Assembly (NCBI GenBank): GCA_959608885.1
Contig: CAUHSG010000003.1
Span: forward strand, 66,470 to 130,469
DNA from: an uncultured Coriobacteriia bacterium
GTDB lineage: Bacteria > Actinomycetota > Coriobacteriia > Coriobacteriales > QAMH01
Length of the DNA: 64,000 nucleotides
Direction: 5' to 3'
Shown here: positions 41,887 through 63,472 of the stretch, piece after piece
Layout of the letters: the number at the start of each line of letters is the position of its first letter
How positions within the stretch are numbered: the stretch's first letter is position 1
The notes under the pieces: generated by a model
What the model saw: only the letters and a program-made list of their open reading frames with translations
Database searches by the model: none
Told to the model about the DNA's origin: nothing
Position numbers and translations under genes: made by a program

Positions 41887-42531
41887 TCAGCTCCTGATAA
41901 AGCGCGAAAGGCGACCGAAGTCATCGCGAGCCACGCAGACGATGGCGACATCGCCATCATGCAAGATGGTGTCCTGCGTGGGAAGGATGGTCTCGTCGTC
42001 ATGCTCGACGGCGACCACGCGCGCATCGTAATCCTTCTCGAGCTCGCTGCATGACATGGTCACGTCATCTTCAAAGTTGAAGGCGAAGCGCACGAGTTCA
42101 TAGCTGCCGAAGGTGTCGATGTGATGGCCGTGTCCCGATTGGATCTTCGAGAAGATTTCCTCGGCGACGAGAGTCGTTCCGCAGGCGAAGTCGAGGCCGA
42201 GCTGTGCGTAGGTCTTCTCGCGACGCGCCTCGTAGAGTCGCGCGATTACATGCGGGACCTCGTAAATGCGACGTGCGACTTCCGCAATCATGAGGTTGGC
42301 GTTATCGTTGCTCGTGACCGCTGCGATGACATCGGCTTCCTCGATGCCGGCATCCAGGAGCACGCTTTCATCAAAGCCGATTCCGCGCACGATGCGACCG
42401 TTGAAATCACGCCCGAGGTTCTTGAACGCATCGGTGGCGCGGTCGATGACCGAGACGTTGTGGCCGTCTTCGGAAAGCAGGGTCGCCAGGTGGCTTCCCA
42501 CGCGACCGCATCCCACGACGATGATGTTCAT
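41887..42531 (-). CDS. trkA: TrkA-family K+ transport regulatory protein (RCK; CeoB-like)
   Basis: 214 aa. MNIIVVGCGRVGSHLA Rossmann motif and an RCK_C-type C-terminus. Confidence 0.9.
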   Translation of the reverse strand: MNIIVVGCGRVGSHLATLLSEDGHNVSVIDRATDAFKNLGRDFNGRIVRGIGFDESVLLDAGIEEADVIAAVTSNDNANLMIAEVARRIYEVPHVIARLYEARREKTYAQLGLDFACGTTLVAEEIFSKIQSGHGHHIDTFGSYELVRFAFNFEDDVTMSCSELEKDYDARVVAVEHDDETILPTQDTILHDGDVAIVCVARDDFGRLSRFIRS

Positions 42532-42547
42532 GGCGCGCCCCTCTCGC

Positions 42548-43819
42548 CTACTGCGCGGTGATCACATCGCAACCCATGTACGGGCGCAGCACCTCCGGAA
42601 CCGTGATGGATCCGTCGGCGTTCTGGTAATTCTCGATGACGGCTGCCATAGTGCGCCCGACGGCCAGGCCGCTGCCATTGAGCGTGTGCGCGAAGTGCTT
42701 CTTGCCGTTTTCATCGGTGTACTTGATGTTGGCGCGTCGTGCCTGGAAATCGCCACAGTTGCTGCAGCTCGAAATCTCCTTGTACGCGCCATAGCTCGGC
42801 AGCCACACCTCGAGGTCGTAGGTCTGACGGGCAGAAAACCCGAGGTCACCCGTGCACAGGCTGATGACGCGATAGGGAAGCCCCAGCTCCTGCAAGATCT
42901 TCTCGGCGCAGGCGGTCATGTCCTCGAGCTCATCGTCGGATTTCTCGGGGTTGGCGAAACGCACCATCTCGACCTTGTCGAACTGGTGCACGCGAATGAT
43001 GCCACGCGTGTCGCGACCGGCGCTGCCCGCCTCCTCGCGGAAGCACGGCGTGTAGGCACAGTAGCGAATGGGCAGTTCGGCGCTGTCGAGCACCTCGTTG
43101 GCATGCAGGTTGGTGAGCATGACCTCGGCCGTGGGGATGAGATAGAGCCCCTCTGTCGTCTTGAAGAGATCTTCCTCGAACTTGGGCAGCTGGCCCGTTC
43201 CGGTGAGGGTTTCCTTGTTCGCGAGTGCAGGAACCCACCATTCGGTGGACCCCCATTTGACGTGCTCGTTGAGCATGAAGTTGATAAGCGAGCGCTCCAG
43301 ACGGGCACCGGCGCCGTGCAATGCGTAGAAGCGCGCGTGCGCGAGCTTCACGCCACGCTCGAAGTCGATGATGCCGAGCTCGGGGCCAAGGTCCCAGTGC
43401 GCTTTAGCCTCGAAGTCGAATTCGCGCGGCGTGCCCCAGCGGCGCACCTCGGGATTATCGTTCTCGTCATCGCCGATGGGCGTGTTGGGGCCGGGGATGT
43501 TGGGAATGGAGTAGGTGAGGCCGTTGAGCTCCTCCTCGATAGCCACGAGGGCGCCATCGAGGTTGTCTATCTCGTCGCCCACATTGCGCATGCGAACCTT
43601 GGCAGCCTCGGCCTCTTCGGCGTTGCCCTCCTTGAGCAGCTGGCCGATTTGCTTCGAGACGGTGTTGCGCTCGGCCTTGAGGGACTCGACCTTCTGGATG
43701 ACCTCGCGGCGTTCTTCATCGAGGCGACGAAACTCATCGTAATCCCACTTCGCGTGGCGATTCTTCAGAGCCTCTTCGATGGCTTCCGGGTTTTCGCGAA
43801 TGAAGCGAATGTCGAGCAT
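42548..43819 (-). CDS. serS: Seryl-tRNA synthetase
   Basis: ORF trimmed to ATG 43819 behind [22 protein letters not shown] opening, class II motifs ([32 protein letters not shown]). Confidence 0.93.
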
Positions 43820-43934
43820 TGTTCCTCCTGTGCGTATGCGCGTCATGCCGTTCGAAATGTGTTGCGAGCAAGTATACCTCTCACGGCGCGTTTTGCGGTA
43901 CCATGCGACCCGTGACTTTTAGCTGGGAGAGAGT

Positions 43935-44649: not shown

Positions 44650-44750
44650 GCGTCGCATGGGCTTGGGCGGCATCATGTCCCGAACCTGGTCAGGTCCGGG
44701 AGGAAGCAGCCATAAGGGGCCTCTGGTGGGCGCCCAAGTCCATACGGCGC
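44650..44750 (+). ncRNA. ffs: Small bacterial SRP RNA (4.5S-type)
   Basis: Conserved domain IV core CCTGGTCAGGTCCGGGAGGAAGCAGCC (44685-44711). Closing helix GGGCTTGGGCG (44659-44669) pairs with CGCCCAAGTCC (44731-44741). Typical location upstream of dnaX-ybaB-recR. Ends approximate. Confidence 0.75.
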
Positions 44751-49774: not shown

Positions 49775-50413
49775 ATGGCAAAGGAACTGAAGATCGGCAC
49801 GGCAGAAGAGCGTGAGGCGCTGGCTGAGCAAGCCCTCACCGACGAAGATATCGTCGATGCGCTTGCGCAGGAAATCGCCGGATCGAGTAGGATTCGTCGC
49901 CAGAAGGCCGCCGCGACCGTCGCGCTCATCGCCGACAAGGACGCGAGCGTGTTGCTTCCCTTCTCCGATGATATTGCGAGTGGCCTGACCAAACCCGAAG
50001 CCCAGACGCGCTGGGAAGTTCTGCACGCGCTCGACAAGATGGGCAAGGCCGGTCAGCGATATGATGAGGATGTGCTCGTCGCTGCCGAAGACTCGCTCTA
50101 TGACGAGACGAACGGTTTCGTCCGCGAGGCCGCGTTCCATTTCTTCTGCGGTTACGGCAGCGCCTCGGTCGACAATTCCGAGGAAGTCTGGACGCAGATT
50201 GACGAGGCCATCCAGTGCTATCACGGCAACCCCGAGTTCACCGACATGCTCATGCAGCTCGTCGCATTTGCCGAGGGAAACATCTCGCTCACCACCAGTT
50301 CCGCGCTCGCGCAGCGCATGAAGTTCGATTCCGAAAACGCATCGGGCACGCTGCGCATGCGTTCGGAGCAGATCGTCGCCGCTCACAAGAAGCGCCTCGA
50401 ACGAGAGAAATAG
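49775..50413 (+). CDS. Hypothetical protein (helical-repeat-like)
   Basis: 212-aa ORF with an in-context start. Amphipathic helical-repeat appearance. No family recognised. Confidence 0.6.
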   Translation: MAKELKIGTAEEREALAEQALTDEDIVDALAQEIAGSSRIRRQKAAATVALIADKDASVLLPFSDDIASGLTKPEAQTRWEVLHALDKMGKAGQRYDEDVLVAAEDSLYDETNGFVREAAFHFFCGYGSASVDNSEEVWTQIDEAIQCYHGNPEFTDMLMQLVAFAEGNISLTTSSALAQRMKFDSENASGTLRMRSEQIVAAHKKRLEREK

Positions 50414-50434: not shown

Positions 50435-50911
50435 TTAGCGCTGCCGTTTATATACGGGGTGCAGGCTCAGCACCTCCGCAAGCCTGTTGGCGTAGTAGCG
50501 GATTCCGCTTGCCGTGCCGCACTCCTCGCCAACGTTGAGAAGCAGAAGCTCTATGACGTCGCTCCGGCTCTTGAAGAGCATGGGGTATTTGCGAACGAGC
50601 AAATCGAGAAAACCGACCGCACTCACGTCGAGCGTGACGTGAATGTAGCGTGATGCCATGAGATCCGGATCTTTGATTTGGGCAACGATTCTGTTCGCTC
50701 GCAACTTCGCCAGCCCGACGACGAAACTGTCATCGGGCTCTGCAATGTAGACGTGCTCGGATAGGAAGATAATGGTCTCGACGAGCTGGCTCACACTTGC
50801 AAAGGTCATCGTGTCATTCTTGAGAAGCGGCAAGACCGAGGCGAACACATCTTCACTGACGGCAGCTCGAATCGTTTCCTTGGGTTCCTCGCGCTGTGGT
50901 CTTCCGCTCAT
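50435..50911 (-). CDS. Hypothetical protein
   Basis: 158-aa ORF, convergent with the previous gene, in a locally A+T-richer stretch. No family recognised. Confidence 0.55.
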   Translation of the reverse strand: MSGRPQREEPKETIRAAVSEDVFASVLPLLKNDTMTFASVSQLVETIIFLSEHVYIAEPDDSFVVGLAKLRANRIVAQIKDPDLMASRYIHVTLDVSAVGFLDLLVRKYPMLFKSRSDVIELLLLNVGEECGTASGIRYYANRLAEVLSLHPVYKRQR

Positions 50912-51014: not shown

Positions 51015-51653
51015 TTGAGGCACATGAACATCACATCTGATTCGAGCGGCGCGGTTGTCCTGACCACGCACGAAAGAAAAGGCTATTTCACGTCGATCCT
51101 GGGGGAGGATATAGACCTGCGTTTCAATCCACGTCATGAGGGAACGTTGGAGAACGTGCTTCATAACACGATTGCAGCGGGCGGGAGTCTCGTAATCATC
51201 GACGAGGCGTTCTTCATAGACGTCGACGATATGGCCACGGGGCTCGAGAACTTCTTTCGGCGGGAAAGCCACCCCGAGCGTCTCAAGCTCATCATCGTAT
51301 GCACTCATCGCAAGGTAGGCGATTTTCTCCTCGCCTTTCTCGTCATGTATTGCGGAATCTACAACATCATCTACGGAAAGTCGGGCGTTGATGTGAGCAT
51401 TGGCCTGGACAGGCTCATGAAACGCGACAACACGCGCGCCGATGTTCTGCATCTGGCCGAGGCGGGCTGCTGGCGAGCGGCGAAAATGGCCGAAGCACGT
51501 ACGAACGCCGACGATGCGGCATGTAACGCCCTGATCACGGACGCTCCAGACAAGGAGTGGGGCTTCAAGAAGATAAGTCGAGATGCGTTCATCGACGTCA
51601 AAGGCGTTCGACTCCTGAAGATCCACATTGAAATCAGCTCCGTGACAAGCTAG
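51015..51653 (+). CDS. Hypothetical protein (possible pseudo-receiver/P-loop-less ATPase-like fold)
   Basis: 212-aa ORF. LVIIDEAFF...LKLIIVCTH strand-like pattern hints at a Rossmann-like/receiver-like fold. Speculative. Confidence 0.5.
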   Translation: MRHMNITSDSSGAVVLTTHERKGYFTSILGEDIDLRFNPRHEGTLENVLHNTIAAGGSLVIIDEAFFIDVDDMATGLENFFRRESHPERLKLIIVCTHRKVGDFLLAFLVMYCGIYNIIYGKSGVDVSIGLDRLMKRDNTRADVLHLAEAGCWRAAKMAEARTNADDAACNALITDAPDKEWGFKKISRDAFIDVKGVRLLKIHIEISSVTS

Positions 51654-51851
51654 AAAACCAGGAGCGTCATATTTCACGGTGCGTGAATTTGGCCGGGGAA
51701 GGGGGGGTGAGATACTTGGACTGGGACTTTTGCATTGCCATTCGAAATCATGGTTTGCAAAAAACCATATCTTGCCGAGATGATTTTCTCCAAATGAGAT
51801 AAATGCTGCGAGTACCCTGCTTCCTCGCAAGAGCAATATCGAGGAGTCAAG

Positions 51852-52109
51852 ATGAGCATTGTGATTCCCCCTGCGCCCTCGCACGAGAATGCTTCGGCGG
51901 TGATGGCGCGTCTCGATCGCCTTTCGCGTGACGAGTCTCCGGAAGAGAAAAGCGTTCATGCAGTGCGCCAATCCCGCGCGCTGCTCATCACGTCTTGCGT
52001 TTTGTCCGCAGGCGGCATCTTCTTGCTCATCTGTGCAATCGCGGTTATTTGTACGCCCGACGCGGTGTTTTCCCAAGCTGTCTTCCTCGCATGCAAAAGT
52101 CTGTTCTGA
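51852..52109 (+). CDS. Small membrane protein (hypothetical)
   Basis: 85 aa. GAGGAG upstream. One clear TM helix (LLITSCVLSAGGIFLLICAIAVIC). Ends 15 nt before the large regulator gene. Confidence 0.4.
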   Translation: MSIVIPPAPSHENASAVMARLDRLSRDESPEEKSVHAVRQSRALLITSCVLSAGGIFLLICAIAVICTPDAVFSQAVFLACKSLF

Positions 52110-52124
52110 GGGAGGCGCACGATC

Positions 52125-54875
52125 ATGAACGACAAGATGGAGCTCGATTTCGAGTCGCTTGCGAGCGAGACCGATATTGCGGAGCTTGCGATCGACGCGA
52201 GTCCGCGCCTGGAGTCGCTTGCGGCCAGCCATGTCAAGCGTGACGAACTCATCTCGATGATGCTGCAAGATCGCAATTCCCTGCGCGTCATTGTCGCGCC
52301 GCATGGCTTTGGCAAAACCGAGCTCGCGCGTGAGTATGCGCAACGCCTCTTTCCAGCCGATGCTGTCAGCTTGGTTAACGCCTCGAGTCCCGACTTCCTG
52401 CTCGCGCTTGATAGCGACGATCGCGCGATTCTGCGACGCAATGCCACATCACCGGGGCTCATCATCCTCGATGATCTCCCCTGGCTACACGAGCAACGTG
52501 CCCAGACGCTCTCGCGGTGCATCGACGCCGCTCTCTATGTCGGCATCGAAATCATCGTGACCACAACGCCCTCATGCGACACACTCAGCGTCTTACAGCC
52601 CGACCGCCTCTGCGTACATGCGACGGACTTGCTCGTCACCGAGCAAGAATGCGCACCGCGTCAGGTGACCGAGCAGGACGGAGGAAGTCGTGCATTCGCG
52701 CGGAAGCGATGGAGCGATGCCGGCAAGCTGTTGTTCGGACGCGCGCCATCGGTTATATGGGGAACGAATACGTTTGCGCAGCGCGAATGTCTCAAGGGCC
52801 TGTTTTCCGAGAAGCTTCCCACCAATATCCTGCGCGGCATGTTTGCCATGTTCTTGTTCGAGATGGGCACCATGCGCGACCTCGAGAGCGCGGGGATTGC
52901 GCTCAGGAACGAGGACATTTCCCTGCTCGCGCGCGACTATCCGATCTTTGGTATTGACACGATTTCGGGCGAATTCAAGGTCATGCATTTCGAGCTTGCC
53001 GATTTGAAGCACGCGGTTTTCGCGAACAAGCTCGAGCCGGTCGTGCTCGAGGGCAGCCATGCGTTATCCGAACGCGTTCTCGGCTCGTTGTTCAGGCGTA
53101 ATGACTTGCGACGTGGCTCGGCGGTCATCGATGCGTTCTGCAATGACGAACGGTGTGCGAGCTGGCTCGTCGAGCGTGGTTGGGATTTCCTCGATGCGGG
53201 TGAGACGCACCTCGTCTCGACGCTCCTCGATCGTTGTCCCGAAGCAGCGTATGCTTCGAGCGGCGTGTTGCAGACGATCCATGCTTGGGTTGCCGGCCTT
53301 TCGGGAGATACGCGCGAAGCGTGCCATATCGCACGGCATGTCCTTGCTGCGCGAGAGGAAGCGGGGAAACCCGATGCCGCCAGCGTTGCGTCGCGTGTCG
53401 CGCTTGCAGTCTTTGACGAGAATGCGATGGTCGAGACCAGGCAACGTGAGCTCTCGTCAGAATATGGGCCGTCGTGCGCGATCGATTCTCTCGCAAATGT
53501 GCTCGACATATGCTCGAATGCCGAAATCGCGCGCGCATTTCGTCCCGACGCTTTCGATGGTGACATTAGGTACGAAAAGGCGCGTAGAGCCCCCGGCAAG
53601 CAGCGAGTGCGGCAGCTCATGACGCTGTTTACCGCGCATGCTGGCGCATTCGGGGATTCCCGGGCATTCAGGCTCTCCCTTCACGTGCTTGCCCATGTTG
53701 ATAATTCCGACTTGCGGCATCTTGTTCAGGATCTTGGCTGCGATGCGGTGCTCCGAATGCGCAGATGCGGCGTGACGACGTTTTCCGAGGCAGTGCTCGT
53801 ACGCGACCTGTGGGATACGGGATACTTCGGGTTGGTCGGGCCGGTCATAGACCGGCGTGATGCGAAGGTCCTCGATGGTGCCACGCACATGCTCGAGATG
53901 CTTGCGAGCTACTGTGGGCTCGAGTCCATCCCGATTCCCTGGGAGCTGCGTGGGCTTTCCTCGAACAAAACGGCGGGCATGCCCAAGCCTAACGTCGTCA
54001 GTTCCGGTGTGGACGAGATGTACGTTCGACTGTTTGGCGGGTTCGAGGTGACAGTCGGCGATACGTTCCTGAGCGAGGGGAAGCTGCGCAAGAAGGCCCG
54101 CGCGCTCTTTGCCATGCTCGTGCTCAATCATGGCCGCGACGTTCCCCGCGATGACCTTTTCAAGCAGATATGGCCAGGTCTCTCCCGTACACATGCGCTC
54201 GATAACTTTTACACGATTTGGGGCAATTGCGTTTCGGTTGTGGGCGAGGATCCCTATCTCGAGCGCAACGGCGAGTACTGCCGCATCGATCCACGTTTCG
54301 TGCGTTCGGACGTCGGCGAGTTCGAGCAGCTCACGCGTCACCTGCTCGTCTCCGAGCATGATGCGAATTACCTGCTCGACACCTACGCCAAGATCGAGGT
54401 TCTCTATCGGGGAAGTCTCTTGCCCAGCGAGAAAAACGTGCGGGCTATCAACGCGCAGCGCGATCGATACCGAGCCCTCTATGTCGATGCGATGGTCGCC
54501 GCGACGGATTGCGCACTGCGCGTGCATGATACGCGCATCGCCCTATGGTTTGCGCGCAAGGCCATGGAGGAGGATCAGGCGCGCGAGGATGTGTACCGTG
54601 TGCTCATGAAGGCGCAGATTGCATCAGGACAGCGTTGCCCGGCCATCAAGACCTATCTCGCGTGTCGCGATTATCTGCAGGGCACGCTCGGCCTTGACCC
54701 ATCTATCGAGACGCGTGAGCTGTACAACGCCCTCGTCACGACCGACCCCGAGCTCCTGCGGCTCGAGGCGGCAATCACGCAGAAGACAGTCTGGCATATG
54801 GGAGGCCCTATGCGCGATATGTGGCTTCTATGGGCATGCGCTTGTTCCCCACTCGTTAGGGAGGGCTTGCGTTGA
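52125..54875 (+). CDS. Large regulator: N-terminal P-loop (MalT/STAND-like) NTPase + C-terminal SARP-type winged-helix and BTAD domains
   Basis: 916 aa. Walker A VAPHGFGKTELA and Walker B LIILDDLPW near the N-terminus. The C-terminal ~270 aa read like OmpR/SARP wHTH (VRLFGGFEV...LRKKARALFAMLVLN...R..L...WP) followed by BTAD (YRGSLLP...E.VYRVLMKAQIASGQRCPAIKTYLACRDYL..LGLDPS.ETRELY). Confidence 0.8.
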   Translation: MNDKMELDFESLASETDIAELAIDASPRLESLAASHVKRDELISMMLQDRNSLRVIVAPHGFGKTELAREYAQRLFPADAVSLVNASSPDFLLALDSDDRAILRRNATSPGLIILDDLPWLHEQRAQTLSRCIDAALYVGIEIIVTTTPSCDTLSVLQPDRLCVHATDLLVTEQECAPRQVTEQDGGSRAFARKRWSDAGKLLFGRAPSVIWGTNTFAQRECLKGLFSEKLPTNILRGMFAMFLFEMGTMRDLESAGIALRNEDISLLARDYPIFGIDTISGEFKVMHFELADLKHAVFANKLEPVVLEGSHALSERVLGSLFRRNDLRRGSAVIDAFCNDERCASWLVERGWDFLDAGETHLVSTLLDRCPEAAYASSGVLQTIHAWVAGLSGDTREACHIARHVLAAREEAGKPDAASVASRVALAVFDENAMVETRQRELSSEYGPSCAIDSLANVLDICSNAEIARAFRPDAFDGDIRYEKARRAPGKQRVRQLMTLFTAHAGAFGDSRAFRLSLHVLAHVDNSDLRHLVQDLGCDAVLRMRRCGVTTFSEAVLVRDLWDTGYFGLVGPVIDRRDAKVLDGATHMLEMLASYCGLESIPIPWELRGLSSNKTAGMPKPNVVSSGVDEMYVRLFGGFEVTVGDTFLSEGKLRKKARALFAMLVLNHGRDVPRDDLFKQIWPGLSRTHALDNFYTIWGNCVSVVGEDPYLERNGEYCRIDPRFVRSDVGEFEQLTRHLLVSEHDANYLLDTYAKIEVLYRGSLLPSEKNVRAINAQRDRYRALYVDAMVAATDCALRVHDTRIALWFARKAMEEDQAREDVYRVLMKAQIASGQRCPAIKTYLACRDYLQGTLGLDPSIETRELYNALVTTDPELLRLEAAITQKTVWHMGGPMRDMWLLWACACSPLVREGLR

Positions 54876-54930
54876 CCTGTGCTAAAGTAATATGACGCCA
54901 ATATCGTTCTCGAAAATAAAGGCATGAATC

Positions 54931-57698: not shown

Positions 57699-58802
57699 AT
57701 GGCAGACAATCACGCACAGGAACTTGCGGCTCTGCGCGAGCGCATCGAGAAGATGGGCTCGTATCTGCACATCGACGACAAGCGTGCGCAGCTTGCCGAT
57801 CTCGAAGCCCAGTCGACGCAGGCGGGATTCTGGGACGACCAGGAGCACGCGCAAGGCATCATGAGCAAGGCCGCTGCCCTGCGTGACGAAATCGCCGAGT
57901 ACGATAATGCCGTCTCGCTTCTCGAGGATGCCGAGACGGCCAACGAACTCGCGATAGAGGGCGATGACGAGCTCGAAATTGAGGTCATCGATTCGATACA
58001 TACGCTCACGACAAATGCCGACGCGCTCGAGCTTTCCTCGTGGTTCGATGACGAGCTTGATTCGGGCGATTGCATCGTGACGATCAACCCCGGCCAAGGC
58101 GGGCTCGAGGCCCAGGACTGGACCGAGATGCTCTTCCGCATGTACACGCGCTATGCAGAGCGCAAGAACTGGAAGGTCACCGTCAACGACGCTCCTGCCG
58201 GCGAGGCCATCGGTCTTGACCGCGCGACCTTCACGGTGAGCGGTCATAACGCCTACGGCATGCTCAAGAGCGAGCAGGGCGTGCACCGCCTCGTGCGCAT
58301 CAGTCCCACCGATGCCAAGAAACGCCGTCAGACCACCTTCGGTGGTGTCGAGGTCCTGCCCGTTTTGCCCGATGACATCGAGGTCGAAATCGACGAGGGC
58401 GACCTGCGCATCGACGTCTACCACTCTTCGGGTCACGGCGGCCAGGGCGTCAACACCACCGACTCTGCCGTGCGCATCACGCACCTGCCCACGGGCATTG
58501 TCGTCACCTGCCAAAACGAGCGGTCACAGCTCCAGAACAAGGCGACGGCCATGGGCATCCTGCGTTCCAAGCTCTACGAGCTCGAACAGGAGAAACGCGC
58601 CAACGAGCTCGACGAGCTGCGCGGTCCCAAGCACGAGATCTCCTTTGGCAATCAGATTCGCAACTACGTGCTCTATCCCTACCAGATGGTGAAGGACCTG
58701 CGCAGTGGTGTCGAGACGGGCAATGTCGACGCCGTATTCGATGGCGATATCGACGAGTTCGTCGTGGGCTACCATCAGTGGCGCGTCAGCGAAGCGGGCT
58801 AA
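57699..58802 (+). CDS. prfB: Peptide chain release factor 2 (uninterrupted ORF; SPT instead of SPF)
   Basis: 367 aa in one frame. GGQ motif SSGHGGQGVNTTDSAVR. Tripeptide position reads RISPTD (58302-58310). Overall similarity to actinobacterial RF2 from memory. Confidence 0.92.
   Translation: MADNHAQELAALRERIEKMGSYLHIDDKRAQLADLEAQSTQAGFWDDQEHAQGIMSKAAALRDEIAEYDNAVSLLEDAETANELAIEGDDELEIEVIDSIHTLTTNADALELSSWFDDELDSGDCIVTINPGQGGLEAQDWTEMLFRMYTRYAERKNWKVTVNDAPAGEAIGLDRATFTVSGHNAYGMLKSEQGVHRLVRISPTDAKKRRQTTFGGVEVLPVLPDDIEVEIDEGDLRIDVYHSSGHGGQGVNTTDSAVRITHLPTGIVVTCQNERSQLQNKATAMGILRSKLYELEQEKRANELDELRGPKHEISFGNQIRNYVLYPYQMVKDLRSGVETGNVDAVFDGDIDEFVVGYHQWRVSEAG

Positions 58803-63386: not shown

Positions 63387-63472
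<86 letters not shown>

Follow-up and report, generated by a model that had tools for sequence, protein, structure and literature searches.

The 64,000-nucleotide window analysed here (contig CAUHSG010000003.1, positions 66,470 to 130,469, from an uncultured Coriobacteriia bacterium) encodes, directly upstream of secA and prfB, a large protein (hereafter the regulator) in which an N-terminal P-loop NTPase is followed by a helical region and a C-terminal DNA-binding module of the SARP (Streptomyces antibiotic regulatory protein) type. The regulator is likely to be a transcription factor of the STAND class (signal transduction ATPases that have numerous domains), built on a nucleotide-binding oligomerization domain (NOD) of the lineage of MalT and the LuxR family's large ATP-binding regulators (LAL), in which the SARP module replaces the LuxR helix-turn-helix. 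The composition, order and folds of its domains, the conservation of its nucleotide-binding residues, its homology to the MalT lineage and its conserved genomic neighbourhood are established by the comparisons that follow.

The C-terminal output module was assigned by profile, structural and conservation analyses. Pfam places the BTAD (bacterial transcriptional activator domain; PF03704) at residues 759-870 with 52.9 bits, against a cut-off of 22.1, preceded by a partial, sub-threshold match to Trans_reg_C (E=0.015). Positions 27-275 of the NCBIfam AfsR model, which constitute the SARP module, pair with residues 630-880 of the regulator (E=9e-8), and hhalign against AfsR-type SARP modules extends over 247 columns (E=2.6e-34). 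In the AlphaFold2 (AF2) models, which were built from the homolog alignment, residues 632-728 form a three-strand sheet, three helices and a hairpin, followed by a helical BTAD at residues 729-891. A Foldseek search with the C-terminal 250 residues recovered the SARP module of AfsR (8hvr_I; TM-score 0.82, root-mean-square deviation 3.2 Å), the best E-value being that of EmbR (2.8e-8); among PDB sequences, the family profile likewise matched AfsR (E=4.5e-12), with AfsR and EmbR in the range of about 1e-11 to 1e-12. Residues G638, R655, L665, D729, P767, R779, R820-E821-D822 and Y867 are invariant in an alignment of 43 homologs. The conserved W683-P684 of the winged helix, together with R820-E821-D822, argues for retained DNA binding and activation. 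A GerE/LuxR-type helix-turn-helix was not matched at the C-terminus of the regulator; the winged helix-turn-helix (wHTH) and BTAD stand there instead, as a sequence-only reading of the same DNA had proposed.

At the opposite end of the protein, the P-loop domain comprises a pre-Walker-A helix (HVKRDELISMML), a Walker A motif, APHGFGKT (aa 58-65, with GFGKT at residues 61-65), and a Walker B motif, LIILDD (aa 112-117), the motifs from which the N-terminal NTPase had originally been called. The residues G61, G63 and K64 of Walker A and D116 of Walker B are invariant across the 43 aligned homologs, as are P119 and P149. Throughout the family the Walker A consensus, A-P-x-G-F-G-K-[TS], hardly varies, and Walker B has a D as its first acidic residue, or an E in distant members. 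The invariant K64 argues for retained nucleotide binding. The N-terminal part of the protein (aa 1-612), modelled separately by AF2, exhibits a five-stranded alpha/beta P-loop core with parallel strands (aa 40-180) at a predicted local distance difference test score (pLDDT) of 85.6 and a predicted TM-score (pTM) of 0.77; the pLDDT of the full chain is 83. Among the Foldseek matches to this part, MalT ranks first (8bob_C, E=7.7e-6, 427 columns) and is the sole match at E<=1e-3, followed by RFC-type AAA+ proteins, the plant nucleotide-binding leucine-rich repeat receptors (NLRs) ZAR1 and RPP1, Avs4 and CED-4. The family profile also matches residues 13-54 of MalT, the pre-Walker-A/P-loop region, among the PDB sequences (E=5.6e-4), and NCBIfam reports a faint MalT match at aa 35-74 of the regulator. 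The Pfam search of the regulator gave no match to NB-ARC (PF00931).

The NOD continues with a helical domain and a winged-helix domain. A GxP-like motif is recognizable at G205..P208, and the wing, DYPxFG...F284, is near-invariant (Y272, P273, G276 and F284). In hhalign, residues 298-427 of E. coli MalT (winged helix/arm) pair with residues 250-398 of the family (E=2.2e-5). A single-sequence hhalign with MalT had placed Y272 opposite the histidine of the MHD motif; this assignment was dropped, together with the idea of a His-to-Tyr replacement, because the better-supported profile alignments put H288 there.

The segment between the P-loop core and the linker is entirely helical in the AF2 model (aa 183-596), i.e., about 410 aa rather than the approximately 500 aa first estimated. 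Its distal part, the putative sensor, has a pLDDT mostly above 85 and aligns colinearly with proteins from outside the Coriobacteriia that combine a MalT-like NTPase with a C-terminal SARP (hereafter MalT-SARP proteins). Comparison of the family profile with PDB sequences gave weak, TPR-like matches in the helical region. The linker that connects it to the SARP module is disordered at aa 609-627 (pLDDT <50).

The lineage of the NTPase was assessed by comparing four profiles with hhalign, those of the regulator family, of genuine MalT/LuxR proteins, of large SARPs of the AfsR type and of the MalT-SARP proteins. For this purpose the comparison was confined to the NOD parts. The NOD of the family pairs with that of MalT/LuxR proteins over 361 columns (E=1.1e-11), which include the nucleotide-binding domain, the helical domain, the winged helix and the start of the sensor, and with that of the MalT-SARP proteins over 365 columns (E=3.8e-17). 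With AfsR-type NODs, in contrast, the match covers 101 columns (E=4.2e-7), the P-loop core only. The NOD of the MalT-SARP group is itself closely related to that of MalT/LuxR proteins (E=1.3e-95). Moreover, the diverse Coriobacteriia family and the MalT-SARP group exhibit full-length homology (hhalign probability 100%, E=1.1e-51, 835 columns). The lengths of the NOD alignments, the full-length homology to the MalT-SARP group and the match to MalT residues therefore indicate a MalT/LAL chassis and not a rearranged AfsR. The description of the protein as a LAL domain order with a SARP output was thus accurate, both domain assignments having held under testing.

The distribution of this domain order was examined by an exhaustive profile search of 1.84 billion representatives of 50%-identity clusters. 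The search yielded 82,594 matches at E<=1e-3, most of them owing to the SARP module, which is abundant, and 1,588 representatives at E<=1e-30. The best 150 of the 82,594 matches all have E<=5e-146 and mostly align in one stretch over the whole profile; the SARP is C-terminal in every one of the 147 representatives of at least 600 aa among these best 150. Among nineteen remote matches of the first search, the SARP is C-terminal in 8 and N-terminal in 10, and Pfam identified AAA_22/TPR_MalT followed by Trans_reg_C and BTAD in the eight C-terminal cases. A search seeded with the latter gave 529 matches at E<=1e-20. Among the matches listed that have at least 600 aa, 67 of 118 contain a C-terminal SARP, the rest being mostly MalT/LuxR proteins. 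Of the 67, many bear the name "BTAD domain-containing putative transcriptional regulator" and originate from Streptomyces species or Gaiellaceae; the JGI label on some MalT-SARP proteins is "MalT/DNA-binding SARP family". The full-length homologous MalT-SARP group includes many named Streptomyces species, Gaiellaceae and soil metagenomes. A second homolog search with the diverse family alignment returned an essentially unchanged set. The order of MalT-type NTPase plus C-terminal SARP is common and visible in the databases, and not a singular oddity.

For the sequence-only reading, it would have counted against the finding if this order belonged to a common and already characterised family. That it is common is borne out by the 147 C-terminal cases and by the full-length homologous group; as to characterisation, when the literature was searched with phrases for a SARP or BTAD at the C-terminus, neither a description of the domain order nor a characterised member came to light. 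The published classes of SARPs (small, medium, large and SARP-LAL) all have an N-terminal SARP (PMC10972967), and a 2026 preprint on AfsR classifies N-terminal SARPs only (bioRxiv 10.64898/2026.09.02.748808). In a 2026 survey of STAND proteins in Nature, transcriptional STANDs are represented only by MalT, GutR and AfsR.

Like E. coli MalT, the actinobacterial LAL proteins and mycobacterial IniR, the regulator begins with a P-loop NOD that has a pre-Walker-A helix resembling that of MalT and a winged helix; a helical region, the putative sensor, and a C-terminal DNA-binding output follow. Unlike them, its output is a wHTH plus BTAD of about 260 aa, compared to a LuxR/GerE helix-turn-helix of about 60 aa, its MHD-type His and second Walker B acid are not conserved, and it lacks a Pfam TPR_MalT or WHD_MalT match. 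IniR, a mycobacterial MalT-like STAND regulator, has a LuxR-type output (PMC5760070); it was considered as a characterised relative, and with this output it is only an analogue. With AfsR and other large SARPs (SARP-NB-ARC-TPR) and with the SARP-LAL proteins (PimR, SanG, FilR), the regulator shares the same SARP module and the coupling of a STAND ATPase to a SARP output. As opposed to the AfsR-type large SARPs, however, the module is C-terminal instead of N-terminal and the NOD is of the MalT rather than the NB-ARC type. The characterised SARPs reviewed in PMC10972967 control secondary-metabolite clusters of Streptomyces, whereas the regulator belongs to a gut anaerobe and lies at a housekeeping locus. 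EmbR of M. tuberculosis also carries the SARP module, but at its N-terminus, followed by an FHA domain, and contains no NTPase. The MalT-SARP proteins of Streptomyces, Gaiellaceae and soil metagenomes (e.g., P0051) have the same domain order (AAA_22/WHD_MalT/Trans_reg_C/BTAD), but they are only about 15% identical to the regulator, keep the canonical MalT motifs YRYHxLF and TEGWxAGL, and have WHD_MalT and TPR_MalT domains that are detectable by Pfam. The gene for P0051 (Streptomyces sp. NPDC096132 contig, L015 11829-20718) adjoins a contractile-injection-system cluster with CIS_tube, Phage_GPD/VgrG, PAAR, gp25, Tail_P2_I and a NADase_transloc protein, neighbours that may hint at what the Streptomyces MalT-SARP branch regulates.

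The boundaries of the regulator gene are presented with those of its domains and of the adjacent elements in Table 1. The open reading frame (ORF), the same one that the sequence-only reading had taken, begins with ATG, with the ribosome-binding site GAGGGAGG about 10 nt 5' of the start, and is the sole long ORF at this position that is consistent with the homologs; its GC content (~58-60%) matches that of the surroundings. The close homologs are 870-890 aa in length and their alignment spans residues 1 to 889. The TGA at codon 890 is kept in the loci L001 and L002 and in the 99%-identical P0001, and the window copy reads TGG; the last 27 residues, which are disordered in the AF2 model, therefore represent a stop-loss tail. 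Judged from these sequences the stop-loss is recent, and it could be either a genuine variant of the strain or an error of sequencing. The new stop codon occupies positions 54873-54875, and the extended -10 element of secA begins 2 nt further on. An assembly or fusion artefact as the source of the architecture itself is ruled out by hundreds of independent full-length homologs. The nearest genome locus, at 90% identity, is that of an uncultured human-gut Coriobacteriia metagenome-assembled genome. The housekeeping proteins encoded nearby group with sequences from such Coriobacteriia genomes, and those beside the paralog locus described below point to Enorma.

Table 1. Features of the regulator locus, in window coordinates
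Feature	Position	Strand	Remarks
Regulator ORF	52125..54875	+	916 aa in window; ancestral 889 aa, last coding nt 54791, ancestral stop 54792-54794
P-loop nucleotide-binding domain, aa 36-180	52230..52664	+	Conserved Walker residues, AF2, Foldseek, family profile
NOD helical domain and winged-helix domain, aa ~181-300	52665..53024	+	hhalign to MalT, column conservation
All-helical, solenoid-like putative sensor domain, aa ~301-600	53025..53924	+	AF2, alignment with MalT-SARP group
Flexible linker, aa ~601-630	53925..54014	+	AF2
OmpR/PhoB-type winged-helix DNA-binding domain, aa 631-728	54015..54308	+	NCBIfam AfsR model, Foldseek, conserved residues
BTAD, aa 729-889	54309..54791	+	PF03704, invariant R820-E821-D822, hhalign
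Stop-loss tail, 27 aa plus new stop codon	54792..54875	+	Codon 890 TGG here, TGA in relatives
85-aa single-pass membrane protein gene	51852..52109	+	Ends 15 nt before regulator start; conserved upstream partner
Paired CATG-centred (pseudo)palindromic boxes, AAATCATGGTTT-N6-AACCATATCTT	51745..51774	+	~100 nt upstream of small gene; candidate operator
secA extended -10 promoter element, TGTGCTAAAGT	54878..54888	+	Directly after regulator stop codon

The gene order in the window is as follows: signal recognition particle (SRP) RNA, dnaX, ybaB, recR, citrate synthase, three genes for proteins of 212 aa (with a weak HEAT match), 158 aa (minus strand) and 212 aa, the 85-aa membrane protein, the regulator, secA, prfB, transketolase and ftsEX; ybaB is unannotated in the window and was placed by analogy with the orthologous loci. 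The pair secA-prfB, already noted downstream of the regulator from the window alone, follows it directly in each of the 14 ortholog-type loci that were examined, the most distant of them having about 26% identity, and the block from citrate synthase to the regulator is found again in orthologous loci with identities as low as 41-44%. In five of the loci (L004, L009, L010, L012 and L016) an XRE-type helix-turn-helix gene is located just upstream of the small gene, where the window has none. The distant members (~26-31% identity; L005, L013 and L014) are preceded by other genes, an M16 peptidase in one and obg-proBA-nadD-rsfS in the others, yet secA-prfB-transketolase still comes immediately after the regulator, so that the adjacency of regulator and secA is the most conserved feature of the context. 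By these comparisons of gene order, the regulator occupies a core-genome syntenic position in the Coriobacteriia. A group of proteins of about 1,000 aa (P0033-P0043; Enorma-like loci L006 and L007) has its genes after PTS EIIA and nagB, with yhbY and ribonucleotide reductase following. This group is presumably paralogous to the regulator, and with its separate locus the Coriobacteriaceae therefore hold at least two lineages of it. An Rfam scan at the regulator locus gave no match, and neither did PADLOC on the regulator and its neighbours.

In all nine Collinsella-like ortholog loci the small membrane-protein gene abuts the regulator, and in two of them, L011 and L012, the genes overlap by 4 nt. 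Its product varies between 76 and 127 aa among the loci and consists of a predicted cytoplasmic N-terminus with a conserved M-x-I-x-V-P-[PR]-[AT]-P, an ARLDRF-like helix, one transmembrane helix and a short tail starting with A/T/S-P. In L005, a 128-aa protein with a C-terminal transmembrane helix is encoded 180 nt upstream of the regulator. Helical repeat sensor domains often bind short peptides, and for this reason the N-terminal peptide of the small partner could plausibly serve the sensor domain of the regulator as an input, or as a membrane tether, in the Collinsella-like clade. Such tethering would resemble the sequestration of MalT by MalK.

The three orphan genes between citrate synthase and the small gene (49775-50413 on the plus strand, 50435-50911 on the minus strand and 51015-51653 on the plus strand) belong to no Pfam, NCBIfam or PADLOC family, the first having a weak HEAT_2 match only. 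Most of the Collinsella-like orthologous loci have this trio, though L011 and L016 only in reduced form, and the distant loci lack it. Among the upstream genes put forward as possible targets, tight linkage to the regulator is seen for the 85-aa gene alone.

Other features of the window include the bacterial small SRP RNA at 44654-44749 (Rfam RF00169, 66.6 bits), upstream of dnaX and recR, and a tRNA at 63387-63469. The prfB gene (release factor 2, 57699-58802) is a single uninterrupted ORF of 367 aa with the PCRF domain from residue 30; it therefore apparently lacks the programmed +1 frameshift that many prfB genes of bacteria contain. A 549-aa ORF at 42266-43915 (plus strand) has no Pfam family at E<=1e-3 and is overlapped by a 432-aa ORF on the opposite strand, such that the coding strand is ambiguous.

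Examination of the intergenic regions revealed two conserved promoter-associated elements. The paired CATG boxes upstream of the small gene, 17-18 nt apart, are conserved in eight aligned orthologous upstream regions (L001, L002, L004, L009-L012 and L016) and are followed on their 3' side by TTTTCTC and a -10-like hexamer, TAC(C/T)CT. In L016 the arms of the palindrome have changed together, to TCTCATGAGA, and the symmetry therefore appears to be selected. The palindrome AAACCATGGTTT has a single occurrence in the window, and one per orthologous locus where it was found; it thus defines no regulon here. The second element, at secA, is an extended -10 of the TGnTAnAnT type, present in all 11 regulator-secA spacers examined, that of L016 included. 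The secA promoter of the window has no good -35. A box, GTTCCCCACTCGTTA (GTTCCCYWCTCGTTA), is located at 54843-54857, 24 nt upstream of the -10 hexamer of secA and inside the stop-loss extension of the regulator; the GTTCCCYWCTCGTTA box is found at a similar distance in L002, L009 and L011 and is not conserved in more distant orthologs. In L002 a TATGNG run with 11-nt phasing comes after the stop codon; it was discarded, since it is not conserved beyond close relatives. Terminator prediction found none between the regulator and secA, and a scan of 49.7-55.1 kb with the sigma-70 consensus found no promoter. Autoregulation and control of secA by the regulator are both possibilities.

Several observations weigh against the assignment of the regulator as a MalT-lineage STAND ATPase with a SARP output, or against parts of the mechanism proposed for it. 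In the Pfam search the NTPase went unrecognised, with AAA models below threshold only, and no TPR, TPR_MalT or WHD_MalT match was obtained. The model gives no confident placement of the SARP with respect to the NOD (full-chain pTM 0.57). At the position of the second Walker B acid, D117, more than half of the 43 homologs have G, N or A, an Arg occupies the expected sensor-1 position in only 8 of them, and H288, which aligns with the "MHD" histidine of MalT and the NLRs, is unconserved, Gly being the commonest residue there. With such degenerate hydrolysis and ADP-sensing motifs, a canonical ADP/ATP cycle is uncertain. In the three candidate promoters, no SARP-type direct repeats with 11/22-nt phasing are conserved across orthologs: the search for such repeats, as suggested by the sequence-only reading, was performed as a shuffle-controlled scan for 7-mers recurring at 10-12 or 21-23 nt in the small-gene and secA promoter sets (8-10 orthologous loci), the outcome of which was negative or no better than chance in both sets, and none were found to be conserved upstream of either gene. 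The symmetry of the CATG palindrome would suit a dimeric helix-turn-helix protein, such as the XRE-type one encoded nearby in several loci, better than tandem SARP protomers. Finally, an ORF for the small partner was not found upstream of L013, L014 or the paralog locus, and the partner therefore cannot be a universal input.

The motif losses lend themselves to another explanation, namely that the protein is a degenerate pseudo-ATPase scaffold, in which the SARP is constitutive or controlled by a partner and no nucleotide switching takes place. The substitutions at D117, the scarcity of the sensor-1 Arg, the unconserved H288 and the sub-threshold scores of all Pfam AAA models would be expected of such a protein, but the G-x-G-K-[TS] of Walker A and the first Walker B acid (D/E) are kept across very divergent members, which is hard to explain unless nucleotide is bound; we consider this alternative rather improbable. 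From the pattern of conserved and lost residues we infer instead that nucleotide binding is retained, that hydrolysis is weak or absent and that the ADP clamp is non-canonical. Given the poor conservation of the second Walker B acid, the sensor-1 Arg and the MHD-type His, the main effect of the nucleotide is probably that of a switch operated by binding, hydrolysis being slow or absent. A different origin for the same three kinds of modules is implied by the label of permuted SARP, under which the sequence-only reading had presented the protein: an AfsR-type large SARP, circularly permuted such that the same NB-ARC/TPR machinery remains and the SARP has moved to the other end. Although the SARP module is clearly AfsR-like, the NOD is not that of a rearranged AfsR but of the MalT/LuxR type (361 versus 101 columns), the AfsR-type match ending with the P-loop core and those to MalT/LuxR and MalT-SARP NODs including the winged helix or extending over 365 columns, respectively. 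MalT is the top structural match, Pfam detects no NB-ARC, and the related MalT-SARP group possesses WHD_MalT and TPR_MalT and a NOD that matches MalT/LuxR proteins (E=1.3e-95). The label was accordingly abandoned, and a permuted AfsR is very unlikely.

Two further alternatives concern function. The regulator could be dedicated to secA-prfB, or to the operon that it forms with its own small gene, and convert a membrane-derived signal into secretion and translation-termination capacity. Its adjacency to secA-prfB in 14 of 14 ortholog-type loci, including the distant ones with different upstream neighbours, the lack of a predicted terminator before secA, the lack of a good -35 in the window secA promoter and the membrane-protein partner are all consistent with this proposal. 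Yet secA has a strong extended -10 in every locus, a type of promoter that needs no activator, no conserved repeat is present near its -35 region, the ~1,000-aa Enorma-like paralogs are located elsewhere, beside PTS EIIA/nagB, and neighbouring genes of a core syntenic block can stay together even if no functional link exists; the proposal is thus doubtful, though it retains an outside chance. STAND NTPases are often defence sensors, and Avs4 is among the weak Foldseek matches, such that an anti-phage (Avs-like) protein with the C-terminal module as a DNA-targeting effector could also be envisaged. The gene, however, is vertically conserved in a core locus among dnaX-recR-gltA and secA-prfB-tkt-ftsEX, and its product carries a complete SARP activator with conserved BTAD residues, and no nuclease or other toxic effector. 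The syntenic position and the lack of a PADLOC match for the regulator or its neighbours make a defence role unlikely, and we regard it as extremely so.

For a MalT-lineage STAND regulator with a SARP output, MalT and AfsR offer analogies from which the mode of action can be envisaged. The helical sensor domain (aa ~300-600) would, at rest, hold the NOD closed. A signal at the sensor and ATP at the invariant Walker A site would then open the NOD and drive oligomerization. The SARP modules, tethered by the flexible linker of about 20 residues, would thereby be brought together, and would bind repeated DNA sites near the promoter, where the BTAD would recruit RNA polymerase. The precedents for such a mechanism are MalT, AfsR (PMC10936776; bioRxiv 10.64898/2026.09.02.748808) and IniR (PMC5760070). 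Ligand control, oligomerization, activation rather than repression, a role for the membrane partner and all of the targets named here are what we infer for the regulator within this scheme.

A broader proposal is that the regulator is a class-wide, vertically inherited core regulator of the Coriobacteriia, whose MalT-type switch reads an envelope or membrane signal (in the Collinsella-like clade, the peptide of the small partner) and whose SARP activates secA-prfB or a secretion/envelope regulon. This proposal is speculative and, in our estimation, quite unlikely; if true, the regulator would be the first SARP with a housekeeping role outside of secondary metabolism, and the founding characterised member of the MalT-SARP proteins.

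The modules of the regulator and the logic of STAND transcription factors were already known, and the finding is in this sense incremental rather than surprising. In the literature, SARPs are treated as activators that bind DNA through an N-terminal module and act on antibiotic clusters of Streptomyces and its relatives, and LAL/MalT proteins as regulators with a LuxR output. The regulator joins a MalT-type switch to a C-terminal SARP, a third combination, which exists in a large and ancient family with at least 147 confirmed representatives and up to about 1,600 at E<=1e-30. The family is absent from the classifications of both SARPs and LAL proteins, and a characterised member would extend both; it would also test whether a SARP can activate transcription from the C-terminal end of an oligomerizing NOD. 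One member of this family is a core gene fixed beside secA-prfB in human-gut Coriobacteriia, and its characterisation would open a first way into regulation in gut bacteria of the Collinsella type.

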